From the sequence record MH517022.1: a stretch of DNA of 64,000 bases; one strand, 5' to 3'. Made by a program: the position numbers and the translations under genes. The stretch comes from Acinetobacter phage SH-Ab 15599. Shown piece by piece: positions 3,619-55,488 of the stretch (positions are counted from its first letter, which is position 1; the number at the start of each line of letters is the position of its first letter). A model generated the notes under the pieces. That model searched no databases. It had not been told where the DNA came from and worked only from the letters and a program-made list of their open reading frames with translations.

Positions 3619-3636
3619 ATTTATGAGGTTGTTGTC

Positions 3637-4089
3637 GTGGTTAAGATTACTAACAATGTTGTTATTGACAGTAATGGTTGTTGGATTTGGAACAAATCCT
3701 TTTCTAGTAACGGATATGGTCAGTTGACTGTAGATAAGCGTTACTGGTTGGCTCACCGTTACTCTTACACGATGTCTAAGGGAGAGATTCCAGCCGACAA
3801 CGTCGTAAGACACAAGTGTCATAACAAGAAGTGTTGTAATCCAGAACACCTTGAAGTTGGTACTCAAGCTGAGAACTGGCAAGACTCTAAAGAAGTTCAT
3901 TTGAACAATGCCAAGAACAGACGCAAGCAATGGTCTATCAATGGTAAGTCTTTTGATACTCTTATGGAGGCTCAACGTTCTTCAGGTGTACCAGCTAAGA
4001 CAATAGCAAAATATACCGTAAGAGGCGTATTTGATTTAGAGCGTTACAGACAAAGTTGCGCTAGAATAAAACGCGAACCAAAGATTTGA
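3637..4089 (+). CDS. HNH homing endonuclease (freestanding, inside the tRNA cluster)
   Basis: HNH motif ...HKCHNKKCCNPEHLEVGTQAENWQD plus upstream CWIWNK...GYGQ, as in phage HNH family members such as I-HmuI. Start lies 19 nt after the tRNA-Arg CCA. Confidence 0.8.
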   Translation: MVKITNNVVIDSNGCWIWNKSFSSNGYGQLTVDKRYWLAHRYSYTMSKGEIPADNVVRHKCHNKKCCNPEHLEVGTQAENWQDSKEVHLNNAKNRRKQWSINGKSFDTLMEAQRSSGVPAKTIAKYTVRGVFDLERYRQSCARIKREPKI

Positions 4090-4327
4090 TTCGCACGGTG
4101 AGTGAACTTGTAAACGGTTGAAGCCCCAGATGTGCGGTGGATACGTGAGCTGAAATTGTCTTGAGTAAGCTCTGAGGGACTAGACAAACCTCTCAGTCAG
4201 AAGTTCATTCAACCATGCGAAAGCAATAGACAGAGAACCGATTTGTTCCTTCTCTGGTGCGCGATTAGCATTGACGCGGTGGATGTCTATAAAGCCACAT
4301 CACTTTCTTATGTATGTAAGAGGTGAT

Positions 4328-4403
4328 TCCCTAGTAGCTCAGTTGGTAGAGCGACGGACTGTTAATCCGTGGGTCGCTGGTTCGAGTCCAGCCTAGGGAG
4401 CCA
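4328..4403 (+). tRNA. tRNA-Asn (anticodon GTT)
   Basis: Cloverleaf: acceptor TCCCTAG/CTAGGGA, D-arm GCTC-AGTTGGTA-GAGC, anticodon stem ACGGA/TCCGT with loop CTGTTAA, T-arm GCTGG-TTCGAGT-CCAGC, discriminator G and CCA. Confidence 0.85.
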
Positions 4404-4948
4404 GATTCAAGACAGTAGCCCGAGAGGGTTATGAGGTGGCTGAGAGAGTGAGCACAAATTGTAAGTACGCATGGTTTGCGAACCACTTGACTTCTAGGAA
4501 GATAGCTAGATGACTGCTGGAAAGACAGCAACCAGATTCTGACTGAATCCATATCGCGGTTGCAGGAAATACCACATGAAATGGTGGCGCGAGACACTAA
4601 CAGTAGACTAATCAGTTGTAAATTCTATTCCCTGAAAGGCTGTCTAATAGGGTATAAACTAACAGCAAAGATGTTTGGATAGGTCAAATAGCAGGTACGT
4701 CTATGCTTCCTGCTTAAAACTCAATAGGATAGGTTATGACAAACAACGGGTTTTGTTAGGATGATAACCTTGTAACTGCTCCGGCAAGTGCAGAACAATC
4801 AAAGAATTTAAGAATAAGGCTGTTGAAGGGCAGCCACCTCTAGCTATCTTTCAGGGTAGTCATGAGAATGATAGTGTAAAGGTCTTTGCTGAAGATTCAC
4901 CTTTACATGAAAGGTCTCAGGAGCCGAGAGTTAAACAAACCCTTCATT

Positions 4949-5022
4949 CCCTGGCTGGTGTAACAGGTAGCACAATGATCTTTCAGATCATGGTTTAGGT
5001 TCGAATCCTAGGCTCGGGGCCA
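4949..5022 (+). tRNA. tRNA-like gene, possibly tRNA-Glu (TTC); imperfect acceptor stem, short variable loop
   Basis: D-arm GTGT-AACAGGTA-GCAC, anticodon stem ATGAT/ATCAT with loop CTTTCAG, T-arm TTAGG-TTCGAAT-CCTAG, then GCTCGGG-G-CCA. Acceptor 5' CCCTGGC pairs with one T-C mismatch and one GU. Confidence 0.4.
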
Positions 5023-15654: not shown

Positions 15655-15865
15655 TGTTCATTAACTCCCGTATCTGCTCTTGCTGTTCATTATACAGACG
15701 TTTTAATGTTAGGACATCAGATTCAAGACTTTCAATTCTTTGTTTCTGAGTCCTAACAATTTCTCTTGATTTTACAAACTGAAGGAAGCCTTCGGTATCG
15801 TTATTTGATACCGAAGCCCCTTGTCTAATCCATTTATCGCTCATATTAGCCTTACGCCAACGCAA
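15641..15865 (-). CDS. small coiled-coil protein (74 aa)
   Basis: Heptad-rich C-terminus (QKQRIESLESDVLTLKRLYNEQQEQIRELMNN). Lies between the large structural gene and the gp13-like gene, where T4 has wac. Confidence 0.4.
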   Translation of the reverse strand: MRWRKANMSDKWIRQGASVSNNDTEGFLQFVKSREIVRTQKQRIESLESDVLTLKRLYNEQQEQIRELMNNVQK

Positions 15866-18800
15866 TCAAACGCAATTCACTCAATTCAGGGGCTTGGTTC
15901 CCTTCAGACGCAAACAGTTCAATGCGAAGTTTTAATCCCAAGAATGTATCTTGAGTATTAATCTCATATTCAGCTTCATATGAATCGGAGTTAGAGTTTT
16001 TGAAGTTCTTAACAACAGAAACATCCTTCCATTCTTTGTTTGTCAAGTTCTCATCCCCAGAAGTCAAATCCTTGTATTTCAACTTCACACTAGAACCATA
16101 TGGAATGTTACCAACCAAGTAGATTCTAGCAGATGTTGAAGGGTTGTTGAACTTCATAGAACGGGTGATGACCTTAGCAATTACATCAGTCGCATTAGTG
16201 CTGATACGCGAACCAATTAATTCAAGTCCAGCTCCATCTAGATCAATCATTGGAGTAACCCATTCATTGTCAGATTTCATTGTAATTGAAAGTTTTGGTT
16301 TAAGGTCTTTAGTTGAAATTCCATCAAATGGCATATCAGCTAATGTATCAGGTAATAGACCTGTGAATGTTGCAGCTGTTCTGTTACCTTGTTGATGAGT
16401 TAACAAGTCAAGAGATAAAGATGTACTATCAAGAACAAATGTTCCTAACCAAGGGCACACTTTATCAAACGGGTTGTTACAAGCTACCATGATAGCGCCA
16501 CCGCCAATGGAACCGCTAACCAAAGCAGGGGTAGTTGCATCAATAGTGAACCAGTCTACATCTGCAGTTACAACGCGTTGTTCTTGGTTGATACGCGATG
16601 CATCAATTCCATTACCAGATACTGCTCCAGTAATAGAGACGTAATCGCCCACTTTCAGACCGTGACCAAGACACTCTACTTTTAACGAAGAGCTTGCTTC
16701 TGTAGTAGAGATTGAGTTGTATGGTAAAAGTCTTGCGCTTGGTGAAGAACCTTCTAAAACGGCGGTATAAGCTGTATCGGTCTTAAATTTACAACCCATG
16801 ATCTTGAATTTCAAGTCTTCTAACTGATTAGGAGTCCAAGTTTGGCCGTTAGAAGATACAAAGAAAACGCCAGTATGAGGTTGTTTAGCAACAACATAGT
16901 TGTTAGCAAGATCAATCTCTCCCATACGAGCTAAGAATACATTGTACTCTTGGGTATCTGCAAGCAATACAATAGCATATTCCTTATCTTTCTCAAGATA
17001 AACAGGATCAGAAAATTCAAATCTTGTTGCTACTGTACCGTTGTTTGAAACATTCACTTGGTCTGGGTTCTTAATAACTTCACCAAACATCAACACTTCA
17101 TTTGAAGGAGTACCATTGTATACATTACGGATTTGCAATGTCACAGGGATACTACGGGCTTTAGTTGAGAAGTAAATGTCAACTGCTTTAATGAACCCAC
17201 CTCCATCTTTAGAGATAGAGAATGTTTGAGCAACAGGGTCACGATTCCAACGCGCTGTAACTCTTGATGAAGATGAAGTCCATTTGGTTTGGATTGCTCT
17301 GAGGGTTTTAGTTACAGTTGTAGTCTTTTGACGAGTCTCTAACTCACCGCCAGATACAAAGGCCGCTTCGCCCATAGTGAAGTTGTTATTTGGATCATCA
17401 GAGTTTGTCTGAGAATCTGTGAACTTCAGAATATTCGTACCATTCTTGAAGCGGAAGTCAGTTGTAGTAGGGATTCTAAATGTTCCTGTTGCTGAGCCGT
17501 TAGCATCAGTTACAATAGCTTCACCAAAGTCCTTACCAGTTTGGCGACACTGAGATGATACTGCAATACCTGAGAAGAATGGATACAAACGAGTCAATGG
17601 TTTGAAACCTTTCAAATCGAATGAAATATCAATACCACGCATGTAAGGTAATACTTGGATTGATACTCTTGAATCAGTAACCTTAACACTTGTACTTTCT
17701 TGAATCTTAGTGTTTACAAATGTATCAGTTGTAGTCTGAATAGTCTCACCTAGACGTTGTGTCAAACGAGTGGTTTCAGATACGACTGAAGAGAGAAGTT
17801 CATCACCTGCTTTCAAACCATTAGTCAAATCATTTGTTTCATTCAAAACGATAGGTTTGTTGTATACAGTATCTTTCCAGAAATCCTGCATTGGATTCAA
17901 AGTAACCGTACCGCCCCAAGTGAATACTGCAAATGGGTTGATGTTAGATGTAGTTGTAGCATAAACCTGAGAAGCAAACTCTACAAGATCATACGGTAAT
18001 GTAACTGTTGAACCATGTTTAACGCCACCACTCAAATATGATAGATCAATACCATTTTGTACGATAGGAGCAGAAACAATTCCTTCTTCAGTATCAATAG
18101 ACGCAGCCCACTCTTGATCTAAAATATCAATCAAACGGAAGTCTTTGAAACGGTCAGCAGCAATACCGTTTTTGTAGCGGTTGTTACCTGTATCTGGATC
18201 CAGAATCTGAGTGCGTTCAGCCTTGGTCTCTACTTGACTCAATGTAGCATAATATTCAACATTTTTCAAGCGTTGATCGATCTTACCAATATCAGCCATT
18301 GTATAGCGTCTATTCTCGACAACACTAGCTTTCACAGACAGAATTGTATCTGTATAAGCAGGAATATTGAGTTGATATAGAGCCATAGAGTCAGCAGGTA
18401 TTTTTGGAGCTACAGGAGTCTCAGATGACGTACCCTTAGCAACAGAATAATTTCCTGCAGCTGAAACGTACAAAATGTCAATACGTGGCAAGAACATTGT
18501 TAAATCAATACGCACGTTATCATTTGGATTAACAATATCATAAGCAGTAGGCAAGTTCGTGAAACTACCGTTAGAAGTCTTCAACAGACGGAAATCAATA
18601 CAGTCAGCAAGGCTGCGCAATACTCGGTCTGAAGACTCTTTAGACGTTGGAATATCAGTACGTGGAACATTATATGAATCTACGCAGAAGAACTCTCCTG
18701 AGTTAGAGTGTTCAAAGTATTCATAAGTCACAGTGATGTTAGCAGTAACAGTACCAGATGTTGAAATCAAAGAACCAGTTTCATACCAGTTAGGGCGTTG

Positions 18801-20663
18801 ACCGTCAAAGAATGTAAACCCTGAAGTCATATCTAAACCACTATCTGTATTGATAACTGAAACAATACGATAGATGTCAGCTTTTGAAAGACTAACAGAA
18901 GACGCATCATTCAATGAAAGATTTTCAGTCGTCTCTCTGAGCGTCTTTGTCTTGTATGTTGGGTTGGTTTTGATGATTGTAGCAATTACACGCAAAGCAA
19001 CGCCAGCATATGAATTGCCGTAGTCAACATTCAAAACTTTACCTGTAGGTGAACCACCTAATGCTAAACCAGTTACAGGTAGAGTTCCAGAACCATTTTG
19101 ACAAACAAGATAGTCCAGAGAATTGATAGAATTAAAGATTTCAGAGCCAGTTAAACCAATTGAAGATTTACCCGTAGCATCTAAAACGATATCAAAAGAA
19201 CGGGTAACATTGAATGTAACATCTAGGCCACCAGTTCCAGTTAATGAACTAACATTTGCATATGGCAGAGGGAATAACAAGCTGTCTACCGTACCACCGA
19301 ACACGCTAGAAACAACTAATGAAGCCTCGAATGTATCTAGAGTTGAAAAACTAGCAACAATACGTTTTACGTTGGAAAACGCTTGGTTAGCGTTCATCTT
19401 GATATCCATTAGATATAATACAAGATTTTCTCCATCGCGTTTAGCAGCACGGACTTTACAAGTCCCGAGAATTGTATTTGCATCATCTACAAGGTTATGA
19501 GTTCTGGTGAGATCCAGTTTTGGCAAACCTTTGATTACACTGGTTACAATATAAGAACCGTATTGAGATTGTACTACACCATTGTTGATGATTTTGGTAT
19601 CTCTGGCCTTCTCTACAACAACATCTTTGTAGTTAGAAATTTCATGACGGTAGCCCTGAACATAAGAAACGCCACGTTTCAAACGCATAACCATCAAAGA
19701 CTCATTACCACCTTCAACTGGAGTATACAATCCATCGACATGTGATTCATCTCGAATATGGTCTAAAATCTCAACAGGAGGGTGAGTGACGGTGTAGTTA
19801 CCAGACTCTTCATATGTGCGTTGAGCCAAGATGTCATTAAAAGCAGCATATTGAGTAGTATCATTGACATTCAACACATCGCCTTCTTGAATTTCTACAA
19901 TTTCAATGAATGTATCATCTTTAGCAGAACGGTCAATTGCTTCAAGACTTAATGAGAGTTTAAGACGACATGCCCCTGCCCCCTTGTAGTTAGGTTCACC
20001 AGAAGCGTTAGAGAATAGCGATGCATCCATAGTCTCATCAATGATTTCTTCATGAATTCTGAAGCCAACCAATTTTGAAGGAGACGGTTCTGGGATCAAG
20101 ATAGATTGAGCTGGAGACAATACAAATGAACCGTTTACAAAATAAACACCTTCAATGATACCAGCATAGAAGCCTTTTGACTTTTCAGCAATAACAGCTG
20201 TAGTGATATCAACTTCAGTACCGTCAATCAATTGAGAAACAATTAACGATTCTTCAAGAGCATATTCTGTTTTAGTTTCGCCGTCTGTATTCAGATACTC
20301 AATAGCAAACCAACCTGTATTACCGCTGATATCCAAGTATTTTAAGATTTTAGCGCGTAAGCCACTGTTTGCTCCACGAAGATAAAAATCATTGCTCTGA
20401 GACAAGAAATTAGATTGGAAATCAGTTGGGAACAATACACGTAATGTATCTTGATCTTCACGAACTGATACTGAACCCTCACCTACAACAGATCCAGATT
20501 TGAAGAAGTGTGAACCAATACGATTAATTTGTTCTTCAATGATTGACTGCAACTGGTTCATTTCACGAACTTGCACAGAACGACCTGGGCGGAACAATAC
20601 CTTGTGGAATCCCTTACTTGGATCAAAGTCATCGTAGAAAGGTGATGCGTTTGTGTCAACCAT
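15852..20663 (-). CDS. giant virion structural protein (1603 aa); baseplate or fibre component
   Basis: Very long ORF rich in T, S, N and G inside the structural module. Followed by a terminator. Confidence 0.7.
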   Translation of the reverse strand: MVDTNASPFYDDFDPSKGFHKVLFRPGRSVQVREMNQLQSIIEEQINRIGSHFFKSGSVVGEGSVSVREDQDTLRVLFPTDFQSNFLSQSNDFYLRGANSGLRAKILKYLDISGNTGWFAIEYLNTDGETKTEYALEESLIVSQLIDGTEVDITTAVIAEKSKGFYAGIIEGVYFVNGSFVLSPAQSILIPEPSPSKLVGFRIHEEIIDETMDASLFSNASGEPNYKGAGACRLKLSLSLEAIDRSAKDDTFIEIVEIQEGDVLNVNDTTQYAAFNDILAQRTYEESGNYTVTHPPVEILDHIRDESHVDGLYTPVEGGNESLMVMRLKRGVSYVQGYRHEISNYKDVVVEKARDTKIINNGVVQSQYGSYIVTSVIKGLPKLDLTRTHNLVDDANTILGTCKVRAAKRDGENLVLYLMDIKMNANQAFSNVKRIVASFSTLDTFEASLVVSSVFGGTVDSLLFPLPYANVSSLTGTGGLDVTFNVTRSFDIVLDATGKSSIGLTGSEIFNSINSLDYLVCQNGSGTLPVTGLALGGSPTGKVLNVDYGNSYAGVALRVIATIIKTNPTYKTKTLRETTENLSLNDASSVSLSKADIYRIVSVINTDSGLDMTSGFTFFDGQRPNWYETGSLISTSGTVTANITVTYEYFEHSNSGEFFCVDSYNVPRTDIPTSKESSDRVLRSLADCIDFRLLKTSNGSFTNLPTAYDIVNPNDNVRIDLTMFLPRIDILYVSAAGNYSVAKGTSSETPVAPKIPADSMALYQLNIPAYTDTILSVKASVVENRRYTMADIGKIDQRLKNVEYYATLSQVETKAERTQILDPDTGNNRYKNGIAADRFKDFRLIDILDQEWAASIDTEEGIVSAPIVQNGIDLSYLSGGVKHGSTVTLPYDLVEFASQVYATTTSNINPFAVFTWGGTVTLNPMQDFWKDTVYNKPIVLNETNDLTNGLKAGDELLSSVVSETTRLTQRLGETIQTTTDTFVNTKIQESTSVKVTDSRVSIQVLPYMRGIDISFDLKGFKPLTRLYPFFSGIAVSSQCRQTGKDFGEAIVTDANGSATGTFRIPTTTDFRFKNGTNILKFTDSQTNSDDPNNNFTMGEAAFVSGGELETRQKTTTVTKTLRAIQTKWTSSSSRVTARWNRDPVAQTFSISKDGGGFIKAVDIYFSTKARSIPVTLQIRNVYNGTPSNEVLMFGEVIKNPDQVNVSNNGTVATRFEFSDPVYLEKDKEYAIVLLADTQEYNVFLARMGEIDLANNYVVAKQPHTGVFFVSSNGQTWTPNQLEDLKFKIMGCKFKTDTAYTAVLEGSSPSARLLPYNSISTTEASSSLKVECLGHGLKVGDYVSITGAVSGNGIDASRINQEQRVVTADVDWFTIDATTPALVSGSIGGGAIMVACNNPFDKVCPWLGTFVLDSTSLSLDLLTHQQGNRTAATFTGLLPDTLADMPFDGISTKDLKPKLSITMKSDNEWVTPMIDLDGAGLELIGSRISTNATDVIAKVITRSMKFNNPSTSARIYLVGNIPYGSSVKLKYKDLTSGDENLTNKEWKDVSVVKNFKNSNSDSYEAEYEINTQDTFLGLKLRIELFASEGNQAPELSELRLIALA

Positions 20664-20754: not shown

Positions 20755-23562
20755 TTACCATCCACCCCGTATATAGGAGTTTTCATTGTAGTACTGAGAT
20801 GATGTGATCAAGCTGCCATTCTTCTTGATAACAAGAGTTCCGGAACCAGATTTGATATTACCGTATGTTCCAGCCGCCGTATTAGAACCAGAACCTGTTG
20901 CAACAGAACCCGATAGACCTGCATCACCACCTTTACCACCGTTGAATACAGTAGTTACAGAAGTGCCTGGGTCAGTATAAGAATATGAACCGCCATCTCC
21001 ACCGATTGTTCTAGTTGCAACAACACCATTGTAATCGCCTGTACCAGCTGCACCTGTAGAAGCGCCACCGCCCCCGCCAATGTTCTTTCCATTAACAGCT
21101 ACACCGCCGCCGCCGCCGCCGCCTGATGCAATGATACAATCGGAGGTAGAGATGTTCAAGTTCAGAGTAAGACCAGAACCTACTTCAATACATGGCCCAC
21201 CGTTTGCTCCTACTTGAGAAAGACCAGGAGATGCACCCTTACCACCTTTACCTACAACGCCGCCAGTACTGTTCCAGAAAATGTTCATTTCTGTACCAGC
21301 TAACCAGTTAACATTTCTCAGAGCAGCGCCCAGAGTAGAAGACGCTGTGAACCAACACTCTCCAGTAATGTACAAGTTACAAATCCAAGCAACGTCTTGA
21401 GTGCCAAATTGGGCTTCAAACAACGACTTGAGATCAACATCTGTAAGGTTTGAACCAGAGAGATACATATTCATCACAGGTGTCAAAGAGGTATCTTTCA
21501 CCAGTAATTGTTTGTTTGAATCTCCTACAACTTGAGATGTAGTTTGGTTGACCCATTCCATCAATAACAATTCATCTCCTTCAGTCTTCTTATCAGCAAT
21601 GATTTCAATCTTTTGAGCAAGAATCATATTGCCTGTATATTGTTTAGCGACCATTGTACTGTTAGTGATATCAACATCTTGTCCTTCTACGATTTCACCT
21701 GTTGTAGATACTGATTTAATTGTAGGTTTGAAATAGGTATTGATAAGCGTTCCAGACGGTACTCTTAGGATCAAATAAACTGTTTTACCTTCATCAGATT
21801 GAGTGATGATATCCGTCCCATTTGGATTAGTTGAATACCAAGTTTCAGCCTTCCAAGCAGTGTCAATAATGATGAGAGCAGTAGATGTAACAACAGCACC
21901 TAAACGTCTCACTTCAAGAGTGATTGTTTCTGTACCTTCATATGGTTTAGTTGGATCAGCCTCTAATGTAACAGGTACAATAATCAAGTTATTGTTAATG
22001 TTTCTTGGAGTACCAAATTCAACAATGTTACTGATATCCGAGTCACTTGAACTGGTAAATGTGAATTCAGTACCATTTGCTACATATTTTGTTTCAAGAA
22101 CCAAATAAACAGTATCGCCTTCATTAGCTTGGGTAATGGTATTTGATCCATCTGCATAGCGAGAGACTCTTGATGCATACTCCGGAGGGCCAGATACATC
22201 AATAACATCTATTTCTTTGAAAGTATTAGATGCTGACAAAGTGAAACGTAACTTCTCAGTTGCTTCAGGTAAAAAGTCTTGTACAATAGGAATATCTACA
22301 ATACCGTTGCCACTTCTGATTTCTACATTCCCAGATAATGGGATACCAATATCGGATTGCGATACTTGAGTGATGTTATATGCCAATAAAGAACCGTCTG
22401 CATTTTGAGGGGCGTTAACAATAACGCGTAGCATTTGTCCTTCACTGACAGTTGTAGATTCAATAAACGCAGAACCCTGTAATATACCCATCTGTAAAGA
22501 ATATGTCATTTCTTCTGATGAAGAGTATGATTCCATGATTGTCCAGTTGATCTTCCCTGTCCAGTTACCACCAGAATCATTTTTAGCAACAAGTCCAAAT
22601 GATCCATTAGCCCGATTTGTTACTTCAACGCCTCCGCAGACAGCTGAGATTTTCTCTGGAGTAGTCAGAATTACAAATCTTTCTCTTGAGAGATCAATGC
22701 CTGGAACGGATACATCAAATGGGGATGTAGGACTGAATGTAGTCACTGCGCTCCCAGCTGCTACAACCTTCGGATAAATCTTAGTTGTATAGATTTGAGT
22801 CCAGAACCCATAAGCGCCGTTGACCTTAGAACGGAAATACATCTCATTTTCTTCTGAGATGAACATTTGCGCTCCCATTGAGGCGTTATATGTTCCTGCA
22901 ATTGTTTGACAAACGCCTTTACCATTCGCATTAGGTCTAGAGCCAGGAGTAGCTGGATTACAATAAACGATAGATGAGAATGAAATTGAGTTCAAGTCTA
23001 CATTGACCCCAGCTGCATCATCTTTCACTTCAACGCTGTTAACATACCCGTATTTGCGTTGTACAACGGTACGCTCAAACAAATTGTAATTTGTTGACGG
23101 CGATAAACGACCTTGAGTACTGAGACCAGTAATTTCAACAGATGCTGCATCATAAACTGTGCTGATAGCAGTCATGGTCAGAATGATACCTACTGAAGTG
23201 GTACCAATCTTTTGCGCCAATGATAATTCTTTAAATTTGAATAAAGATGGATCTTCATTCAGAACGCTAATGATATTCACACTGTTATCGATAGCCGCGC
23301 CCGTATTTCTACCTTGACCACTAACTGCTACGACAAGATTGAAACGCTTTCTGTTCATAGAGAAATCAATAATGTAGAATCCATTAATCAATTCCCCCTC
23401 GTCAATCAATACGTTGTATTCCCCGTCCTTTCTTGTAACAACAATAGGAGAGGGAGTTGTATCAATCGTCATGTTTTTGTCAAAAGACATATATCCCAAC
23501 CCAGAAATATTCGGGGCTTGAATACCCTGAGGGAACTGGGTTGCTACATTATTATCAGACAT
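20755..23562 (-). CDS. structural protein (935 aa) with a glycine-rich C-terminal region; paralogue of the 24005..26437 gene
   Basis: Poly-Gly tracts (GGGGGGGVAVNGKNIGGGGGAS...). Shares blocks with the 810-aa protein, including MYFRSK and IGIPLSGN...G.VDIPIV.D..PE..E. Confidence 0.65.
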   Translation of the reverse strand: MSDNNVATQFPQGIQAPNISGLGYMSFDKNMTIDTTPSPIVVTRKDGEYNVLIDEGELINGFYIIDFSMNRKRFNLVVAVSGQGRNTGAAIDNSVNIISVLNEDPSLFKFKELSLAQKIGTTSVGIILTMTAISTVYDAASVEITGLSTQGRLSPSTNYNLFERTVVQRKYGYVNSVEVKDDAAGVNVDLNSISFSSIVYCNPATPGSRPNANGKGVCQTIAGTYNASMGAQMFISEENEMYFRSKVNGAYGFWTQIYTTKIYPKVVAAGSAVTTFSPTSPFDVSVPGIDLSRERFVILTTPEKISAVCGGVEVTNRANGSFGLVAKNDSGGNWTGKINWTIMESYSSSEEMTYSLQMGILQGSAFIESTTVSEGQMLRVIVNAPQNADGSLLAYNITQVSQSDIGIPLSGNVEIRSGNGIVDIPIVQDFLPEATEKLRFTLSASNTFKEIDVIDVSGPPEYASRVSRYADGSNTITQANEGDTVYLVLETKYVANGTEFTFTSSSDSDISNIVEFGTPRNINNNLIIVPVTLEADPTKPYEGTETITLEVRRLGAVVTSTALIIIDTAWKAETWYSTNPNGTDIITQSDEGKTVYLILRVPSGTLINTYFKPTIKSVSTTGEIVEGQDVDITNSTMVAKQYTGNMILAQKIEIIADKKTEGDELLLMEWVNQTTSQVVGDSNKQLLVKDTSLTPVMNMYLSGSNLTDVDLKSLFEAQFGTQDVAWICNLYITGECWFTASSTLGAALRNVNWLAGTEMNIFWNSTGGVVGKGGKGASPGLSQVGANGGPCIEVGSGLTLNLNISTSDCIIASGGGGGGGVAVNGKNIGGGGGASTGAAGTGDYNGVVATRTIGGDGGSYSYTDPGTSVTTVFNGGKGGDAGLSGSVATGSGSNTAAGTYGNIKSGSGTLVIKKNGSLITSSQYYNENSYIRGGW

Positions 23563-24004: not shown

Positions 24005-26437
24005 TTATCTCCCAGAAATCCAACCAGAATAGTTTCTGATATCTACATTATGTTCATTTGTTTCAATAATTTTACCCTTCAAACCGCCCTTGCCTGGAGC
24101 TAAAGCAACATACCAAGTACCAGTATAGTTGAATATTCCGTCACTGCCGTCGGCTCCAATGTCGCCGCCATTGCCTGGTTTCATAGGGCGCATAGTTGGG
24201 TCATACTGTTGAGGAGCCGTTGTAGCGTTCCCTACTGGTCCAACGTCTGTTTGAACTTCTTGTCCAGACGGGTATCGTCTATAAACTTTATCATTTTTGG
24301 AATAGGCTGAAAAGTCGTAAGCATCAGTCCAGATCGGCCAAGACTGTAGATCGGGAGAAATTAGAGTTTGAGGCGTGTACATCATTTTAGGCGTAATTCC
24401 ATAAGGAGCGCCGCCGCTTCCAGCTACAATAGGGTGCCAAGCGTTTCGGTTACTCATTTCAGTACTTGCGCCCACACCAGAAGCGCCACCTCCGCCGCCG
24501 CCTCCAGCTACAACTCCATAGTTCTCAAAGATCAAGAAATTGTTATTTGATCCAGATATACAACTCCCGCCATCCTCTCCATTAAAGTTTGTTGTATTCA
24601 AAGGGGATATTGCATATCCACCTTGACCACCTCTGCCCCAGACAGAACCAAAGTTTACATACTTGATCTTTGACCCATAAGGGAAATCTCCAACAGTGAT
24701 AGCTGAGATGGCAGTAGACGATGCTACAACAACCGTTCCATAGTTTTGAGTAAACTTGATGTTCACAGGGTTGGTTACATCTACGCCCTTTGACTTAGCA
24801 AAATTGTAAAGATTCAAATCAACCATATCTGTAGAAATGTTAATAACAATTTCATTTACAACTGGTTGGTTAAACAACAACGGATAATAAAAGCGCCCGT
24901 TATTATCCAGTGAAACATCTATCTCATTGGGAACGGAGTTGATAAGAGAGGATGCAAAGTCGGAACCTTCAAAGGAAAGTCTATATGTTTGCTGAGGGTC
25001 ATAAACAATACCCACGACCTGAACATATAATACAAATCCATCTTTCAGATCAGTGACAGGCATATTACCTTGGATATCAGAAGAGAAATATACATTAAAT
25101 TCAGGTGCAATTGAAGTATCTTGAATTATCATAGAAGCTGACACGCCAGAACCATTTTGTAATGTTAGGGTCATTGTTTCTTGACCTTCTGGTGTCATAT
25201 CTTTGATTACTGGAACATCTATTACACCAGAGGAGTTCATGATAGTGAAATTACCAGATAATGGGATACCAATATCGGTCTCTGTAACGCCAGTAATCAA
25301 AAATGGAATCAGCGTACCGTTAGGGACATTCAAAGTCGAAAGAACGAATCTTACAGTTTGCCCCTCCTCAACCGAAGTAACTGGAGTTGTATCTGACCCA
25401 TCTAAGCGTCCAGCATACATATTATATCTTGGCGCGTTAGAAGGAGCGTAAGCCTCTGATATGTTATAATTGATTACGCCCGCCCAAGCTGTCTTCAAAA
25501 CAATATCAAAGAATCCATAACCTCTATCAGCAATCTGAGGAGTTGGAGATAGATCAATGTTATCATATTGGGTAGACATATTGATAACATAAGCTTCGTT
25601 GGTAAGATCAATGTTGCCTACGCTTATTCTGATCAATTGGGTTCCAGTACCAGCTGCTACAAATTGAATACCACTTTTGACCAGTTTAGGATATTTGTCA
25701 TCACTTAATGCTTCCTCCCAACTTGTACCCGTTGATCTGAAATACATCTTTCTGTTTTCTGAGACAAATATCTGATTGACCTTATCGCCAAAGGCAAAGG
25801 TCATACAAACGCCAACCCCGTTGAAATCTGGTCTAGAATTAACAGAAGCTGGTTGACATAAATTGATGGAGTTTTCTTTGATATTATTCAAATCAACATT
25901 TGTAATGTCATCAACTCTTAGAATATTCTTTGGATTAATGATAGAGGCGTCAATATTATTAGTGTAATTGTTATAATTGAGATTTGGAGAGACTTCTATC
26001 TGTGAACCAATATGAACAATTGAGCAACTTAATGGGCCGTGAGTTCCAGCGCCGTTGGTTCCAATTTTCAATAACAAACCTACATCTGTTGATGCATTAG
26101 CTCTTAAATCAACATCTTTGAGATAAATTGGGCCTGGGTTTGAGATGCTCAAGATGTTGAGTGTGTTACTACCTGAATCAGCTGATTGTCTTCCATTAGC
26201 TGAAGCCAGGATCATGAGTTTTTCATTATCTGGGTTAGTGAATGTAATGAAATACAGACCACTTATGGTTTGTTTTGAGTCTACAACAAATAAATATTCA
26301 TCGCCATTAACAGGAATATTAGCAACATCCTTTCTTGAGCTGCCAAAATTTCTAGAGAATTTCAATCCATCGATACCAATGAGGCTTTTTGCTCCAACTC
26401 CTCTAGGGTAGATGGATGGTAATTTCACGTCAGCCAT
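24005..26437 (-). CDS. structural protein (810 aa), glycine-rich; paralogue of the 20755..23562 gene
   Basis: Shared N-terminal and central blocks plus Gly-rich tract (GGGGGGASGVGAS...GNGGDIGADGSDG). Confidence 0.65.
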   Translation of the reverse strand: MADVKLPSIYPRGVGAKSLIGIDGLKFSRNFGSSRKDVANIPVNGDEYLFVVDSKQTISGLYFITFTNPDNEKLMILASANGRQSADSGSNTLNILSISNPGPIYLKDVDLRANASTDVGLLLKIGTNGAGTHGPLSCSIVHIGSQIEVSPNLNYNNYTNNIDASIINPKNILRVDDITNVDLNNIKENSINLCQPASVNSRPDFNGVGVCMTFAFGDKVNQIFVSENRKMYFRSTGTSWEEALSDDKYPKLVKSGIQFVAAGTGTQLIRISVGNIDLTNEAYVINMSTQYDNIDLSPTPQIADRGYGFFDIVLKTAWAGVINYNISEAYAPSNAPRYNMYAGRLDGSDTTPVTSVEEGQTVRFVLSTLNVPNGTLIPFLITGVTETDIGIPLSGNFTIMNSSGVIDVPVIKDMTPEGQETMTLTLQNGSGVSASMIIQDTSIAPEFNVYFSSDIQGNMPVTDLKDGFVLYVQVVGIVYDPQQTYRLSFEGSDFASSLINSVPNEIDVSLDNNGRFYYPLLFNQPVVNEIVINISTDMVDLNLYNFAKSKGVDVTNPVNIKFTQNYGTVVVASSTAISAITVGDFPYGSKIKYVNFGSVWGRGGQGGYAISPLNTTNFNGEDGGSCISGSNNNFLIFENYGVVAGGGGGGGASGVGASTEMSNRNAWHPIVAGSGGAPYGITPKMMYTPQTLISPDLQSWPIWTDAYDFSAYSKNDKVYRRYPSGQEVQTDVGPVGNATTAPQQYDPTMRPMKPGNGGDIGADGSDGIFNYTGTWYVALAPGKGGLKGKIIETNEHNVDIRNYSGWISGR

Positions 26438-26523: not shown

Positions 26524-26910
26524 ATGACTCCTAAGAACCATCTTACATTGGAATGTCACTACGGCACCAATCTGACAACTACGGTGACAGGTATTGATCC
26601 AGAGACGTCATTAACGTACCGTTTTGATCAGTTCACAGATATTCAAATGCACATTTCAGTATCTGCAATTGACCCTCCATACAAAATCGTACCCCTAGAA
26701 TTTGATCAGGGCGATCCTAGACAATTGGTTGTGGAGGTATTAGAGACGCAATTGATGAACTCAGATGTAGTGTCATCAATGGTATTAGTGAATCCACCGC
26801 CTTACTTTGTATTTTCAATAATTGGAAAGAAAGACGGCGTTAACAAGGTGTTGTTTGATGGTATAATCAATTATACCAGATTTGGAGCTATGAAGTTCTC
26901 ACGACTTTGA
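26524..26910 (+). CDS. hypothetical protein (128 aa); the only plus-strand gene inside the minus-strand structural block
   Basis: Strong GAGAGGAAA RBS. Convergent with the gp25-like gene. Confidence 0.5.
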   Translation: MTPKNHLTLECHYGTNLTTTVTGIDPETSLTYRFDQFTDIQMHISVSAIDPPYKIVPLEFDQGDPRQLVVEVLETQLMNSDVVSSMVLVNPPPYFVFSIIGKKDGVNKVLFDGIINYTRFGAMKFSRL

Positions 26911-27259
26911 TGAAATCAGTAGAGGCATCAAGTTCATTCTCATACAGATAAATGATACGTATGGTCAGCTGATGCCTCTCAATACTCTCAAACAATACAT
27001 CTTTCACTGTAATTCTAGGTTCATCAATCCTAGCAATTTCTTCAATCCGACTCTTCACTTGATTTCTTATAAGAGCATTATCATTCTGGAACAGAGTGTT
27101 GTAAACTTCCCCGCCATGAATATCAGTTCTCATAATAAAATCTGTGATGCTAGACAATACAAGTGTCTTAAATGATTGAAAAACTGCTCGCTTTCCAGTG
27201 AGTAAGAACAAATCCTGAGTCTCTGGATGGGATAAAAATCTAGGGTCAAAATCGGCCAT
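26888..27259 (-). CDS. baseplate wedge protein, gp25/GPW family
   Basis: About 123 aa with the EPRI motif (RIDEPRITVKDV) characteristic of gp25-like proteins. Adjacent to the hub and lysozyme genes. Confidence 0.6.
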   Translation of the reverse strand: MADFDPRFLSHPETQDLFLLTGKRAVFQSFKTLVLSSITDFIMRTDIHGGEVYNTLFQNDNALIRNQVKSRIEEIARIDEPRITVKDVLFESIERHQLTIRIIYLYENELDASTDFIKVVRTS

Positions 27260-27269
27260 TTTAGATACC

Positions 27270-28730
27270 TCAAGGACTAGGCGTAGGTGTTACGGGCGCA
27301 CCCAAAGGGAATATTTTGTTTCCAACGCCCAAATACACTGAGTCATTATGAATGAACATCCCAGAGTATGTTGTTGGCATAGAATTCAAAGTTGGAACAA
27401 TCATACCAGCTGCAACATTGATTGGTGAGTTGAAAGATACCTCTCCAGCTGTACCTCCACTACCACCTTCCCCTCCACTTGGAGGTTGAACGTTGATTGC
27501 TCCAGAAAGACCTGCTAATGCCGCTCCAGCTGCACTGCCTGGGGCTAATGCGTTTGCGACCTTAGCAAGTTCTGATGAAGCTGCGTTCAACTGAGCAATA
27601 GGGGCTTTACAAGTCAACTCTTGAGTATCAATACTCTTGGCATCAACAGGTTGAGCAAATGCTGCCGGAGAGTTGACTTGAAGGTCTTTAGATTCAATAG
27701 TCATATTGTCGTTAGACATGACCTTTTGTCCAGTTTTCTCATAAGACTGACCTTCAACAATTTCAGCTTGGTCTTCCTTTTGAAGCTTTTGGACTGACCC
27801 ATTAGCCAACAAAAATAGGTCTTTATGCGCTTTGATTACAATATCTCCATCTGCGTGCATCTCAATATATGAGCCACTCATATGAAATATCATAATGCGT
27901 TCAACCCCAGGGGTATCGTCAATCTCAATACAGTGACCAGACGGAGATTGATACACCTTATTATGAGGATATTGCGGGGCTGCTCTACTTCTTGGTTCAG
28001 TTACACCTGAAGAACGAGAATTTGGGGTCGGTGAATCAGTAGAAGTACCAGACTCAGGGACAGCTTCATCCAAATCCTCAACTTCCTTTCCCGTGAGGAC
28101 ACTCAAAGCGCGTTTGTACATTGTAGTACGTTCTTCAAAATGGAGACTTGCTGCGTTGATTCGCTTAACAACAACAGCCCAGTTACCAGCATCGGCTTGT
28201 CTATTCAGAGATTTGTTACCCCAGAACCAACAAGCGGAAAGAGCCGCGTTTTGTTTCTGTTGTAAAGACTCTGGATTGTTTACAGCCCCAGAACTCGGTT
28301 CACTGCGTTGGAAATCGGCATAGTTCCCTCTGCCCGTCAATTGGATGATACCTTGTCCTCGATATCTCCAACCGTCTCCAGACGCTTCATTGCCATTACC
28401 AATCTTGTTAGCATAGACGTAGTTTGCAATCTTTTGAGGGTTGCGAGCATATGCATTAGCCTGAGCTGAGGTTTTGAACTTGCTAGGGAATACTTCCATC
28501 AAACGTTCAGCTGAATAATTGAGGTTCTCAACCAGTCTGCTAAAGTTACTTGATTCAACAGAAACATTTCCAAAGAACATTGCAATACGATACAACTTTA
28601 CAATCTGATACTTTTGCATTGAAGGCCAGAGTGCAGCATGCCAACCAGCTGCATTACTCGCACTCAAACCAAATATCTTCTGAACATGTTCTACAGTGAG
28701 AACAATATCCTTATTTTCTAATTCAGCCAT
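27270..28730 (-). CDS. virion-associated peptidoglycan hydrolase: GH19 glycosidase domain plus C-terminal extension
   Basis: GH19 signature YRGQGIIQLTGRGNY plus upstream GDGWRYRG. Starts 1 nt after the gp5-like ORF stop. C-terminus is Gly/Ala-rich. Confidence 0.65.
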   Translation of the reverse strand: MAELENKDIVLTVEHVQKIFGLSASNAAGWHAALWPSMQKYQIVKLYRIAMFFGNVSVESSNFSRLVENLNYSAERLMEVFPSKFKTSAQANAYARNPQKIANYVYANKIGNGNEASGDGWRYRGQGIIQLTGRGNYADFQRSEPSSGAVNNPESLQQKQNAALSACWFWGNKSLNRQADAGNWAVVVKRINAASLHFEERTTMYKRALSVLTGKEVEDLDEAVPESGTSTDSPTPNSRSSGVTEPRSRAAPQYPHNKVYQSPSGHCIEIDDTPGVERIMIFHMSGSYIEMHADGDIVIKAHKDLFLLANGSVQKLQKEDQAEIVEGQSYEKTGQKVMSNDNMTIESKDLQVNSPAAFAQPVDAKSIDTQELTCKAPIAQLNAASSELAKVANALAPGSAAGAALAGLSGAINVQPPSGGEGGSGGTAGEVSFNSPINVAAGMIVPTLNSMPTTYSGMFIHNDSVYLGVGNKIFPLGAPVTPTPSP

Positions 28731-28731
28731 G

Positions 28732-29700
28732 TTATTTCGCCTTTAAATTAGCAACATCTGGAAAGACTGCTGCAATGAGACTTGATCTAGCAAAGGTTGT
28801 TCTTGTAACTTCCCCGCCATTCTGTTTGTTCTTAGCCGATTGGTTACCACCCACAGCATGTATACGCCCATCTTTTTCATATTCACAGAAAAATACGTGA
28901 CCAGAAGATGCGCCCCTGTTACCCGCAATTACACAAATACTGCCTGGCGGAATAGGCTTCTGATTAAGAGTTGATTTACCGTATCTTGTATAAGAACGGG
29001 CTGCAGCTGAGCCAGATCCTTTGATACCAACCTTTTGTAAACACCAACCCACAAAGGATGCACACCATGGAGTCTCTCCTCCCCATTTAGATGAACCACC
29101 GCCTTTGGCGTGATACTCTCTAATTTGAGCAGGGTTATCTCTTTCATCAACACCCAATTGAGAAATAGCTACAGCCAACCAAGGATAGTTTTTCAACTCC
29201 TCTGGACTAATCTGCGTATCATTTGGATTGTTAGCGCCGTCAATGTCACCAGAAATGGCATTTGCGTCTTTCTGAGCATATACATCTGATGAAGTTACAA
29301 TACCACGGGCCAAGGGGTTGACGTCATGGTCAGTACCATTTGGAAAGGGAACTGAAGGGTCAATGAGATTGTTACGCTGTCCGGCAATAGTGAATTGAAC
29401 TTCCCATTCTTGAAAGTCATTTGATGACTTAGGTCTCAATCTGACCAAAGAACCTTCTAGAAGTCCTAGAGGGGCAGTTCCTAAACCACTTACAAATGGA
29501 TTTGTAGCTGGTACTGCTATAGTACACCAAGGTAATTTTTCTTTCGGGACCTCTGCTGGGTTCAAAGAATGAATACCAAAAATGCGAACTCTCACGCGTC
29601 CACACTCTTTTGGATCCATAAGGTCTTCAACAATCCCTATATGATCTCCACAATACAATGGTAATTCTTTTCTTGACATAATAAATGCCCGATAACACAA
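28732..29700 (-). CDS. baseplate hub protein with gp5-like N-terminal OB domain fused to a CHAP peptidase domain
   Basis: GIVEDLMDPKECGRVRVRIFGIHS matches the T4 gp5 N-terminus. C-terminal CHAP motifs: catalytic Cys in TPWCASFVGWCLQ and His in SGHVFFCEY. Confidence 0.75.
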   Translation of the reverse strand: MCYRAFIMSRKELPLYCGDHIGIVEDLMDPKECGRVRVRIFGIHSLNPAEVPKEKLPWCTIAVPATNPFVSGLGTAPLGLLEGSLVRLRPKSSNDFQEWEVQFTIAGQRNNLIDPSVPFPNGTDHDVNPLARGIVTSSDVYAQKDANAISGDIDGANNPNDTQISPEELKNYPWLAVAISQLGVDERDNPAQIREYHAKGGGSSKWGGETPWCASFVGWCLQKVGIKGSGSAAARSYTRYGKSTLNQKPIPPGSICVIAGNRGASSGHVFFCEYEKDGRIHAVGGNQSAKNKQNGGEVTRTTFARSSLIAAVFPDVANLKAK

Positions 29701-29724
29701 TATATTGAATATTTAGCTTCAGGC

Positions 29725-29748
29725 ATAAAGAAAGGGGCTTTCGCCCCT
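29725..29748 (-). terminator. rho-independent terminator (AGGGGC-GAAA-GCCCCT plus TTTCTTTAT on the minus strand)
   Basis: Located after the stop of the 29751..30089 gene. Confidence 0.55.
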
Positions 29749-29750
29749 GT

Positions 29751-30089
29751 TTAGATTTTAGACCAAGTCACTTCAAATTGATGAATTGTTTTGAGATTAC
29801 CGCAGGGAGAACCCTCATGTCCAATTATAGCGGTTTGTTTCTCTTCATCTACTTCTAAAACGCAACCTACAATCCCTTTGAATAATATACCTCTCTTTCT
29901 TAGCATGTCCCATAAAGGTATAGCGTAGATTGAGTTGTTCATATCAATACATTTTACGATAGTATCAAACTCAATTTCACCTGCTTTAGCATGGTCAGTT
30001 TCCAAACTTGTTACATTTACGTGGTAGCGATTTTTCTCATTATTTTCCATGACCTTCTCCTTAGAATAAATGTGGGCCAAATAGATCAA
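29751..30089 (-). CDS. hypothetical protein (112 aa)
   Basis: ORF present. Confidence 0.5.
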   Translation of the reverse strand: MIYLAHIYSKEKVMENNEKNRYHVNVTSLETDHAKAGEIEFDTIVKCIDMNNSIYAIPLWDMLRKRGILFKGIVGCVLEVDEEKQTAIIGHEGSPCGNLKTIHQFEVTWSKI

Positions 30090-54876: not shown

Positions 54877-55488
54877 TCACTTAGGATATTTCGCCCAAGA
54901 CAATTGGTAGTGTGGCCCGTCTTTGAAAGACTTCCAATCGCCTCCCCATTCCAGACCTTCAATGTTAAGCTCTTTAGCAGCTTGCTTCATAGCTTCTTCA
55001 ATCATGTAGTAGTATTTCCAATCCCAAGAAACAACTCCATTAGGGTAGGCAATAAGGTCTACTGCATGACCAGTGAGATGACGGCTGTTCAGAGTCTGAG
55101 TTGCGCCCTGTTTGATTAGAACCTTCTGACGTTCTAAAGTGCGCATACCCTCTCCAACCTGAAACTGAATGTTGGACAACTGAATGGCGCGTTTCACAAT
55201 CTTTTGAAGGATTGGGTTGATTTCTGACAGACGCTTGAGAGAAGTTTCGCTCAAAGAGAAATCAGTTGTAGGTTTGAGACCCAACTGAAGTCCTAAATGA
55301 GCAGCTGTCTTATCTCCTACAATACCATCAAATGGCTTGATATTATTATCGGTCTGATATTTCTTGACAGCGTCTTTCGTACCCTGACCAAAGATATCAT
55401 CAATGCGTTTGTTGTAATATCCTTGTTGATGAAGAAGCTCTTGAAGCTCCTTCACCTTCGGGCTTTTATCTCCGAGTTTCAAAATCAT
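54877..55488 (-). CDS. endolysin: peptidoglycan-binding domain plus M15 (L-alanyl-D-glutamate peptidase) catalytic domain
   Basis: N-terminal PG_binding_1-like repeat (LKLGDKSPKVKELQELL...YQTDNNIKPFDGIVGDKT). C-terminal SRHLTGHAVDL...DWGGDW...DGPHYQL zinc-peptidase motifs. Confidence 0.75.
   Translation of the reverse strand: MILKLGDKSPKVKELQELLHQQGYYNKRIDDIFGQGTKDAVKKYQTDNNIKPFDGIVGDKTAAHLGLQLGLKPTTDFSLSETSLKRLSEINPILQKIVKRAIQLSNIQFQVGEGMRTLERQKVLIKQGATQTLNSRHLTGHAVDLIAYPNGVVSWDWKYYYMIEEAMKQAAKELNIEGLEWGGDWKSFKDGPHYQLSWAKYPK

Follow-up and report, generated by a model that had tools for sequence, protein, structure and literature searches.

A probably two-gene gp5-type tail spike carrying CHAP and GH19 lytic domains in Acinetobacter phage SH-Ab 15599

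The gp5 protein of phage T4 matures into two chains, gp5* and gp5C, which remain associated, gp5C packing non-covalently against gp5* after the cleavage. Both chains derive from one gene with one lysozyme, of the GH24 type, and they are made by proteolysis at S351/A352. In Vi1-like Ackermannviridae, gp5 is a single chain with the order OB-CHAP-helix, as in G646_gp134 of Serratia phage phiMAM1 (606 aa). Among the phages of Gram-positive bacteria, virion-associated hydrolases such as HydH5 (CHAP and LYZ2) combine a peptidase or amidase with a glycosidase and are delivered by the tail.

The two adjacent genes considered here, ORF A and ORF B, lie in a 64,000-nucleotide stretch of Acinetobacter phage SH-Ab 15599 (MH517022.1), which is the window to which all coordinates refer. 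The comparisons described below make it probable that the gp5-type central spike of the contractile tail is genetically split in this phage, each of the two genes encoding one half. Our literature searches gave no description of a CHAP- or GH19-bearing gp5 or of a split of this type, nor did they turn up virion proteomics, a structure or enzymology for SH-Ab 15599 or for phages nACB2, RSP15 and PhiW-14. The locus contains the following features:

26888..27259, minus strand: gp25-like baseplate wedge gene
27270..28730, minus strand: ORF B (SHAb15599_00155), putative needle subunit of 486 aa plus stop, with a GH19 muramidase-type domain at the N-terminus, then linker 2, a beta-helix and a C-terminal tip region
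28728..28734, minus strand: gene junction TAA-c-ATG (stop of A, 1 nt, start of B)
28732..29679, minus strand: ORF A (SHAb15599_00156), putative spike-base subunit of 315 aa plus stop, in which a gp5-type OB domain is joined through linker 1 to the CHAP peptidase
29703..29715, minus strand: motif TAAATATTCAATA, between the hairpin and the ATG of ORF A
29733..29748, minus strand: hairpin AGGGGCGAAAGCCCCT with a T-rich tail, resembling an intrinsic terminator

The most likely start of ORF A is the ATG at 29679, which gives the 315-aa protein of the GenBank record, and not the TTG at 29700. Like its T4 counterpart, the gp5-type spike gene of SH-Ab 15599 lies beside baseplate genes; gp25 follows here and is found directly after B in all close relatives. 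The hairpin closes the gene upstream of A, and ORF A therefore opens a new transcription unit. The same hairpin arrangement is present upstream of the A-type gene of nACB2, in which the counterpart of TAAATATTCAATA is TAAATATCTCAATA, although megablast detects no DNA similarity (about 85% or higher) between the two genomes; a megablast of positions 27000-30000 against the phage collection gave zero matches. We infer TAAATATTCAATA only to be a candidate T4-type late promoter, and its 10-mer taken alone is not significant.

ORF A matches the N-terminal part of gp5 and ORF B matches gp5C, so that the pair is colinear with a single T4 gp5 (PDB 1K28, 1WTH). The OB domain, both linkers (1 and 2) and the beta-helix of T4 gp5 have homologous counterparts in the two products, in the same order. 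The gp5 hub profile PHROG 430 is divided in the same way, positions 22-179 matching A and positions 302-430 matching B. The slot of the T4 lysozyme is occupied here by CHAP, the stop/start and GH19, and neither A nor B gave a match to a GH24 (T4-lysozyme) domain between OB and helix. Unlike T4, SH-Ab 15599 has two genes and two unrelated enzymes, in two ORFs that lie in different frames and not in a single polypeptide; the second enzyme stands after the break, so that the needle chain bears a lysin of its own.

The features of ORF A are:

29380..29643, minus strand: gp5-type OB-fold domain, about residues 13-100 (Pfam Gp5_OB)
28759..29199, minus strand: CHAP/NlpC-P60 (TIGR02594-type) cysteine peptidase, about residues 161-307
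29062-29064, 28897-28899 and 28843-28845, minus strand: predicted CHAP catalytic codons Cys206, His261 and Asn279 (codons checked)

The sequence-only reading had proposed a gp5-like OB domain fused to a CHAP domain with catalytic Cys and His, and the domain searches bear this out, with scores above the cutoffs for Gp5_OB (E 2.2e-9, 38.1 bits; cutoff 25), CHAP (PF05257; E 1.9e-8, 35.1 bits; cutoff 26) and NCBIfam TIGR02594 (71.6 bits; cutoff 70.55). Residues 20-177 align to T4 gp5 11-176 with E 1e-12 as a single sequence and E 1e-30 with a family profile, and Foldseek places the ORF A model with the T4 and KP1 spikes (E 5e-6; 2z6b and 1k28 with probability 1.0). In the CHAP region, pLDDT is mostly 70-90 over 10-residue blocks, three blocks being at 56-62, and the predicted structure is a papain-like alpha+beta fold whose Foldseek neighbours are Ly7917, Acd33800, LysIME-EF1, LysK CHAPK and NlpC1/2 (E 2e-3 to 0.1, probability 0.6-1.0). 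C206, H261 and N279 are invariant across 26 homologues, and 317 phage records align to at least 80% of ORF A.

The replacement of the lysozyme by CHAP, to which the earlier reading had drawn attention, is real here but not special. phiMAM1, which belongs to the same virus family cluster as SH-Ab 15599, has it in a single OB-CHAP-helix chain, and judged by sequence the arrangement is ordinary in Ackermannviridae. The phiMAM1 protein shares the TIGR02594-type CHAP with A (34% identity over about 300 aa of OB and CHAP), its helix onset is 39% identical to B, and its gene is likewise followed by gp25; residues 10-282 align to A and residues 338-417 to B 253-332. It is without GH19, and its CHAP-helix linker of about 55 aa is the site at which SH-Ab 15599 has the stop/start and the GH19 domain.

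The features of the N-terminal part of ORF B are:

28086..28730, minus strand: GH19 endolysin-type domain, residues 1-215
28554-28556 and 28527-28529, minus strand: predicted GH19 catalytic codons Glu59 and Glu68 (codons checked)

The adjacent gene had been read as a GH19 muramidase, and its GH19 nature stood up to PDB matches and fold comparison, but it is not merely an adjacent lysin, as it is also the gp5C needle and hence half of the spike. The proposed Pfam check supported OB and CHAP on A but not GH19 on B, where PF00182 scores 13.3 bits (E 0.073), below its cutoff of 25.5, and no Pfam family is found at E<=0.01. Because this score is sub-threshold, GH19 was confirmed by sequence matches in the PDB and by fold. 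In phmmer, ORF B matches the solved GH19 endolysins 9ms6 (1.8e-41), 9eoi (1.1e-37) and SPN1S 4ok7 (4.4e-25); the model of residues 1-215 (pLDDT about 90) superposes on 9eoi with TM 0.88, rmsd 2.1 A and 40% identity; and Foldseek relates it to the GH19 chitinases 3wh1, 2cjl and 1wvu (E 6e-5 to 4e-4). Homologues of the same architecture do exceed the PF00182 cutoff of 25.5 (L008 38.4, P0199 27.0, P0158 31.6). The GH19 identity of the N-terminus of B is thus firmly supported by sequence comparison and by the model. E59, E68 and the cleft residues Y106, Q130, T132, N192 and R201 do not vary among 15 homologues, and the cleft motif GRGxIQLT is present, G125, G127, Q130 and T132 being invariant in the same set. 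PaGH19Lys (PA14_08160/PA0629, PDB 9EOI) was found by experiment to be a muramidase, and its catalytic residues E51/E60 are experimentally supported (PMC12329726). B E59/E68 align to these residues and the cleft residues correspond too, and by analogy with PaGH19Lys only, the GH19 domain of B would be a muramidase that cleaves MurNAc-GlcNAc.

The last 270 residues of B correspond to gp5C, with a linker and a beta-helix needle:

27975..28085, minus strand: linker 2, residues 216-252; Ser/Thr/Pro-rich, E245 and P246 nearly invariant
27651..27974, minus strand: gp5C-type beta-helix, onset and body, about residues 253-360, from the phrog_430, T4 gp5 and phiMAM1 alignments
27273..27650, minus strand: C-terminal region, residues 361-486; predicted helices 383-409 and a small beta domain 457-476 (low pLDDT)

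Residues 221-325 align to T4 gp5 354-459 (E 1.3e-8) and, in BLASTP, residues 223-327 to 356-460 (2e-12), the helix region carries an invariant motif, YPxN..SxSGHxxExDDTPGxER, and the Pfam Gp5_C repeat is above its cutoff in homologues of B. The model is of low confidence in the beta-helix and tip, with pLDDT <50 at residues 295-447, which for the helix results from its having been calculated as a monomer. Residues 361-486, which presumably form the spike tip, belong to a C-terminal region of variable length, homologues ranging from 474 aa to 2647 aa. Linker 2 has its homologue in the T4 gp5 stretch right behind the maturation cleavage site S351/A352, and this site maps onto B residues 218/219, immediately C-terminal to GH19.

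This last correspondence bears on an alternative that we consider rather unlikely, in which both proteins are in the virion but one or both enzymes are catalytically silent, or GH19 is cleaved at linker 2 while the virion is assembled, in the manner of T4 gp5 maturation, and lost, so that entry would use at most one activity. The position of the mapped cleavage site directly behind GH19, the sub-threshold Pfam score and the replacement of the active-site His50 of PaGH19Lys by Val58 in B speak for it. Against it stand the intact predicted GH19 fold and the invariance of the catalytic and most cleft residues in A and B homologues that are only 31-70% identical to the SH-Ab 15599 proteins, which argues for selection on activity.

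The phage also encodes a separate soluble endolysin:

54877..55488, minus strand: PG_binding_1 plus M15 L-Ala-D-Glu-type metallopeptidase, separate from the spike

Its assignment by the sequence-only reading is confirmed by homology. The product scores 52.3 bits against Peptidase_M15_4 (cutoff 25), PG_binding_1 is also matched, and it resembles the L-Ala-D-Glu endopeptidases ChiX (5opz, 5.8e-38), 8q2g (9e-37) and that of T5 (2mxz, 1.9e-17); the Zn-ligand motifs SRHLTGHAVD and GPH are seen in the translation. No transmembrane segments were found in the ORFs neighbouring the M15 gene, and a lysis cassette could therefore not be defined. The claim of three different peptidoglycan-cleaving activities agrees with the domain content (CHAP, GH19 and M15), and two of the three lytic domains appear to sit on baseplate-spike parts, A being OB plus CHAP and B being GH19 plus gp5C.

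It is improbable that B is instead a lysis endolysin, or a dual-use soluble lysin, that lies beside the hub gene incidentally, with A alone being structural. PHROG 181 'endolysin' is the best family match of B (1e-87), RefSeq calls its RSP15 and PhiW-14 homologues endolysin, and between its GH19 domain and free endolysins the identity is 40-48%. Free GH19 endolysins are, however, about 200-290 aa long, whereas B is longer by 270 residues with homology to gp5C; in PaGH19Lys and the SPN1S endolysin (4OK7), GH19 makes up a free soluble lysis enzyme of about 210 aa, whereas in B it is the N-terminus of a needle protein. B-type genes moreover always accompany OB-CHAP and gp25, and a modular PG_binding_1 plus M15 endolysin is encoded elsewhere in the phage. 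The presence of the gp5C linker and needle on the 486-aa protein is the strongest argument for virion association.

The split spike has identical architecture and synteny in nACB2 (gp131/gp130; 83% identity to A and 68.5% to B), Ralstonia phage RSP15 (ORF208/207; 39% and 38%) and Delftia phage PhiW-14 (an unannotated ORF and gene 82; 44% and 37%), and these modules differ only in junction geometry and in the length of the B C-terminus. It recurs in about 36 metagenomic clusters with GH19 at the very N-terminus followed by the helix, found in a search of 1.84 billion representatives and none of them fused to OB-CHAP upstream, and in IMG/VR each full-length OB-CHAP locus with downstream data adjoins a B-type gene. 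In SH-Ab 15599, the spacing of 1 nt given by the earlier reading is exact: the junction is AAA TAA c ATG, both ORFs being on the minus strand and ORF B in frame +1 relative to ORF A, with AAGG 9 nt upstream of its ATG. The junction is TAATG in nACB2, TGATG in PhiW-14 and ATGA in RSP15 as well as in two metagenomic phages. A and B are 10 nt apart in one lineage; another has a 77-aa ORF between the A-type and B-type genes, a further one has gp25 between A and B, and in Atu_ph04 the two halves are unlinked, about 98 kb apart. That A and B are one gene, through a sequencing error or a programmed +1 frameshift at AAA-TAA-C that would yield an OB-CHAP-GH19-helix chain of about 800 aa, is very improbable: B does lie in the +1 frame 1 nt past the stop and A does end in A-rich codons, but the break falls at the same domain boundary in >10 independent genomes/contigs, the junction geometry and frame vary by lineage (+1, -1, 4-nt overlap), a stop-containing spacer, the 77-aa ORF or gp25 intervenes in some, no slippery site is conserved, and no OB-CHAP-GH19-helix fusion occurs among 307 B matches, 30 A matches and the best 150 of 22,287 profile matches (1.84 billion representatives).

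The proposal that a single ancestral gp5-like gene acquired a second lytic domain and split holds in so far as the two ORFs equal one gp5-like gene, but the split is present in every relative found and, judging from these genomes, is old and fixed, not recent. Single-chain spikes of the order OB-GH19-helix exist in metagenomic P0190 and P0199, whose GH19 is of the endolysin type as in B, and B aligns in one piece to P0190 residues 143-478. Instead of gain followed by split, the pair could equally go back to a chimera in which a CHAP-type 5' half was joined to a GH19-type 3' half. In a neighbour-joining tree of 130 GH19 domains, in which we asked whether spike-borne GH19 had a single origin, the best split united 23 of the 36 B-types with 2 others. 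Other metagenomic single polypeptides with this type of GH19 have the enzymes in other positions, P0225 being OB-helix-GH19 and P0175 being OB-helix-CHAP-GH19; P0175 pairs CHAP with GH19, but its CHAP is not close to that of A (23% identity, E 0.23). The metagenomic spikes show that the CHAP/GH19 pairing recurs, which does not imply that the pairing is inherited.

For the split spike as we prefer to read it, we infer virion location, A/B stoichiometry, docking and the bonds cut by analogy. As in T4 gp5-gp27, three copies of A would form an OB-fold collar under the hub and tube tip, with one CHAP per copy. Three copies of B would intertwine their C-terminal halves into a beta-helical needle with GH19 at each N-terminus, and the linker and helix onset of B (equivalent to T4 gp5 352-390) would pack non-covalently on the A trimer. 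The tight stop-start junction is read as translational coupling, which we propose would favour equal amounts of A and B. Upon tail contraction, the needle would pass through the outer membrane and CHAP and GH19 would reach the peptidoglycan, where GH19 would cut glycan bonds between MurNAc and GlcNAc and CHAP would cut the stem peptide or the amide link of that peptide; between them they would open a local hole for the tail tube. Lysis at the end of the cycle would fall to the separate M15 endolysin.

More tentatively, and with well under even confidence, these elements may be combined into a modular, splittable gp5 platform with a detaching (GH19-needle)3 'warhead'. The needle, as a separate product with its own muramidase, would be freed into the periplasm as (GH19-needle)3 after puncture and cut glycan strands, while CHAP would remain at the tube tip and cut peptide stems. 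The peptidase-GH19 pairing would have arisen repeatedly, in the two-gene form, as OB-helix-CHAP-GH19 and possibly as OB-GH19-helix-M15; if true, this would mean that selection favours the cleavage of two bonds at entry. Dual-function T6SS effectors and evolved VgrGs (TseP, PDB 8XCL) follow the same logic of peptidase or amidase plus glycosidase as A/B. Proteins of the HydH5 and TseP types differ in having other carriers (tape measure, tail tip or secreted effectors), usually on one polypeptide, and share no homology with A/B outside the catalytic folds.

The probable two-gene spike with two lysins is a conserved but undescribed variant of the known gp5 machine. It widens the T4 scheme, in which a single gp5 with a single lysozyme matures by proteolysis, in three respects: a spike can be encoded by two coupled, and even unlinked, genes; GH24, CHAP and GH19 can freely replace one another in the enzyme slot; and one spike can bear two complementary cell-wall enzymes. 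The A/B pair offers a natural system for studying the non-covalent docking of a needle on an OB collar, and A and B are enzybiotic candidates, as two putative virion-borne lysins for the cell walls of Acinetobacter, Ralstonia and Delftia. Several annotations can be corrected: B-type proteins are now called 'endolysin' or 'hypothetical', the OB-CHAP gene is absent from the PhiW-14 record, and in nACB2 the only protein given as 'lysozyme family' in the published description, gp129, is gp25-like.

Two further phage proteins deserve mention. In Ochrobactrum phage vB_OspM_OC, a protein called 'chitinase' aligns with 61% query coverage, but it was left out of the comparisons, its context being unrelated and lacking neighbouring OB or gp25 genes. 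For Atu_ph04 gp12, about the first 500 residues had no match in Pfam or the PDB; we noted a putative SLT-like motif, ES...GYQFG.

ORF A and ORF B of SH-Ab 15599 are, judged by sequence, colinear with a single gp5, the central spike protein of T4, in the order OB domain, linker 1, CHAP domain, stop/start, GH19 domain, linker 2 and beta-helix; this colinearity follows from alignments to T4 gp5, from positions in the PHROG 430 profile and from an invariant motif. The window covers part of the 143,204-bp genome, and the two ORFs match its annotated proteins at 100% identity: SHAb15599_00155 for ORF B, and SHAb15599_00156 for ORF A when counted from the ATG at 29679. The genes concerned are:

27270-28730, minus strand: ORF B (ORF scan)
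28732-29700 (ATG at 29679), minus strand: open frame of ORF A (ORF scan)
54877-55488: PG_binding_1 and M15 peptidase (domain search and similarity to characterised L-Ala-D-Glu endopeptidases)

The fusion of an OB domain to a CHAP domain with catalytic Cys and His, proposed in the sequence-only reading, is upheld for ORF A. Gp5_OB and CHAP each exceeded the Pfam cutoff, NCBIfam TIGR02594 was also matched, and residues 11-176 of T4 gp5 were aligned by sequence, a match that a profile of 26 homologues lifted to E 1e-30. Cys206, His261 and Asn279 (315-aa numbering) are invariant in the homologues. In the AlphaFold model, pLDDT was mostly 70-90 within both domain cores, and the nearest folds were the T4 and KP1 spikes, followed by CHAP/NlpC-P60 lysins.

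ORF B starts 1 nt past the TAA of ORF A, the gap originally read, and its proposed GH19 domain was also recovered, although the Pfam check suggested for both ORFs succeeded only for ORF A: GH19 remained sub-threshold in ORF B (13.3 bits versus a cutoff of 25.5). Solved GH19 endolysins align to residues 11-212 with E values between 1e-41 and 1e-25, and the modelled domain (pLDDT ~90) superposes on PaGH19Lys (9EOI) with a TM of 0.88; true GH19 chitinases also match this model. PaGH19Lys is a muramidase by experiment, with catalytic E51 and E60 (PMC12329726). These residues align to E59 and E68 of ORF B; neither that pair nor the cleft residues Y106, Q130, T132, N192 and R201 vary among 15 homologues. 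With the M15 peptidase at 54877-55488 also borne out, the facts of the sequence-only reading are correct.

Beyond this domain, ORF B residues 221-325 match T4 gp5 354-459 in a sequence search, and BLASTP aligned residues 223-327 to 356-460; this T4 segment runs from directly past the S351/A352 maturation site into the beta-helix. Positions 22-179 of the PHROG 430 (gp5 hub) profile match ORF A and positions 302-430 match ORF B. The motif YPxN..SxSGHxxExDDTPGxER is invariant across the ORF B family, and the Pfam Gp5_C repeat was found in ORF B homologues. The beta-helix part was poorly modelled as a monomer, as expected for an intertwined trimer. By homology, ORF B is more than a lysin, and its needle half had been overlooked at first reading.

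The earlier proposal that one gp5-like gene gained a domain and then split is compatible with the data as one possible order of events. An equally simple route would be a chimeric origin, in which a CHAP-type 5' half was joined to a GH19-type 3' half (for instance after tandem duplication or recombination), because CHAP-only and GH19-only single-chain spikes both exist. A tree of GH19 domains is compatible with a single capture as well as with several. Unlike the two-gene arrangement, phiMAM1 gp5 (606 aa) is one OB-CHAP-helix chain; having a CHAP domain where T4 has lysozyme is usual for Ackermannviridae, with which SH-Ab 15599 has been placed as a singleton (PMC8878043), and 317 phage records span at least 80% of ORF A. 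Among metagenomic single-chain spikes, P0199 and P0190 carry GH19 in the lysozyme slot, and ORF B aligns to P0190 in one piece; P0225 has the layout OB-helix-GH19; and P0175, encoded between gp53 and gp25 on a T4-like contig, has the layout OB-helix-CHAP-GH19, with a CHAP subtype unrelated to that of ORF A. From these CHAP, GH19 and mixed layouts, we infer that the gp5 enzyme slot is highly modular and that two-enzyme spikes arose more than once. P0175 (L029 5001-7529), whose enzymes are placed beyond the helix tip, and P0190 (L032 1362-3713), an OB-GH19-helix protein with a PAAR gene downstream, resemble "evolved" VgrG proteins. P0190 may also carry a candidate C-terminal M15 domain (sub-threshold match, motif SQHNKGMAVD).

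Comparison of related sequences shows that the two-gene split is genuine. The module recurs in Acinetobacter phage nACB2, the nearest sequenced relative, with a TAATG junction, in PhiW-14 with TGATG and an OB-CHAP ORF that is intact yet unannotated, in RSP15 with ATGA, and in four metagenomic phage contigs (ATGA in two, a 10-nt spacer in one and an intervening 77-aa ORF in one). With frames and spacers differing in this way, a sequencing error is ruled out, and a programmed frameshift conserved across the group becomes very unlikely. In IMG/VR, a B-type gene adjoins all full-length OB-CHAP loci with enough downstream sequence, and searching 1.84 billion protein representatives with a profile yielded ~36 clusters with an extreme N-terminal GH19 followed by the helix, none of them with an upstream OB-CHAP fusion. 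Megablast of the spike-gene region against the phage collection gave no match.

In one lineage, whose B proteins are very long (1291-2647 aa), the genes run in the order OB-CHAP, gp25, B. On the metagenomic contigs L030 (674-8617) and L031 (2165-6115), gp25 precedes the needle gene, and the 800-2100 residues past GH19 and helix are Pfam-blank except for a faint DUF7863. In Agrobacterium phage Atu_ph04, OB-CHAP (gp43) lies ~98 kb from the unlinked helix protein gp12 (853 aa; L011 30272-32833), whose N-terminus differs from the GH19-bearing B type; no family was matched by the first 500 residues of gp12, and its motif RESSGNY...GGYQFG has a putative lytic-transglycosylase look.

We propose that an ORF A trimer would form an OB collar bearing three CHAP domains, and an ORF B trimer a needle bearing three GH19 domains, docked non-covalently via the conserved linker and helix-onset segment, by analogy with T4 gp5C on gp5*. 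Translational coupling would favour equal amounts of both chains, and tail contraction would bring muramidase and peptidase to the same peptidoglycan patch. Lysis would be left to the separate M15 peptidase, which is close to characterised L-Ala-D-Glu endopeptidases. A terminator upstream of ORF A and a nearby motif kept in nACB2 (TAATAT.CAATA-like, TAAATAT.CAATA) suggest one late transcription unit of ORF A, ORF B and gp25, with the motif as candidate promoter.

No paper recognising a two-gene, two-enzyme spike was found in the literature searched, the coverage of which was incomplete, and an earlier description is possible. The nACB2 paper identified gp129 as the sole lysozyme-family gene; gp129 is in fact gp25-like. 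This gp25-like wedge (nACB2_129, L001 6427-6798; window 26888-27259) is labelled "lysozyme family protein" in nACB2, which looks like a mis-assignment from the GPW_gp25 family name. The module is not taken up in the PhiW-14 paper; the 328-aa OB-CHAP ORF (L003 2967-3953; record 70153-71139) has no CDS in GenBank/RefSeq, locus tag gp082 is skipped, and gene 82, the ORF B homologue, is gp5 in one record and endolysin in the other. PhiW-14 contains alpha-putrescinylthymine according to the literature, so that thymidine hypermodification and the spike module are found together within this group of phages.

Two large proteins of 935 and 810 aa (20755-23562 and 24005-26437, both minus), encoded immediately downstream of the gp25-like gene, each contain a glycine-rich stretch that Pfam matches to the T4 GP38 tail-fibre adhesin (E 4e-8 and 5e-13); it seems unusual for GP38-like modules to be embedded in proteins of this length. 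Between the gp25-like and 810-aa genes lies a single plus-strand ORF (26524-26910, 128 aa) without family match, and nACB2_128 is an opposite-strand ORF at the matching position. The 1603-aa ORF at 15852-20663 (minus) matches solely unknown-function PHROGs (phrog_358, phrog_877); the 5-kb "VriC" gene of Atu_ph04 occupies a comparable position, beside neck and sheath-stabiliser genes. An 873-aa ribonucleotide reductase large subunit (49760-52381, minus) has a C-terminal thioredoxin-domain match (phrog_22, 771-865), suggesting a fused NrdA-thioredoxin/glutaredoxin. A cluster of three tRNA genes (Arg-TCT, Asn-GTT and Glu-TTC) lies at 3542-5022 (plus).
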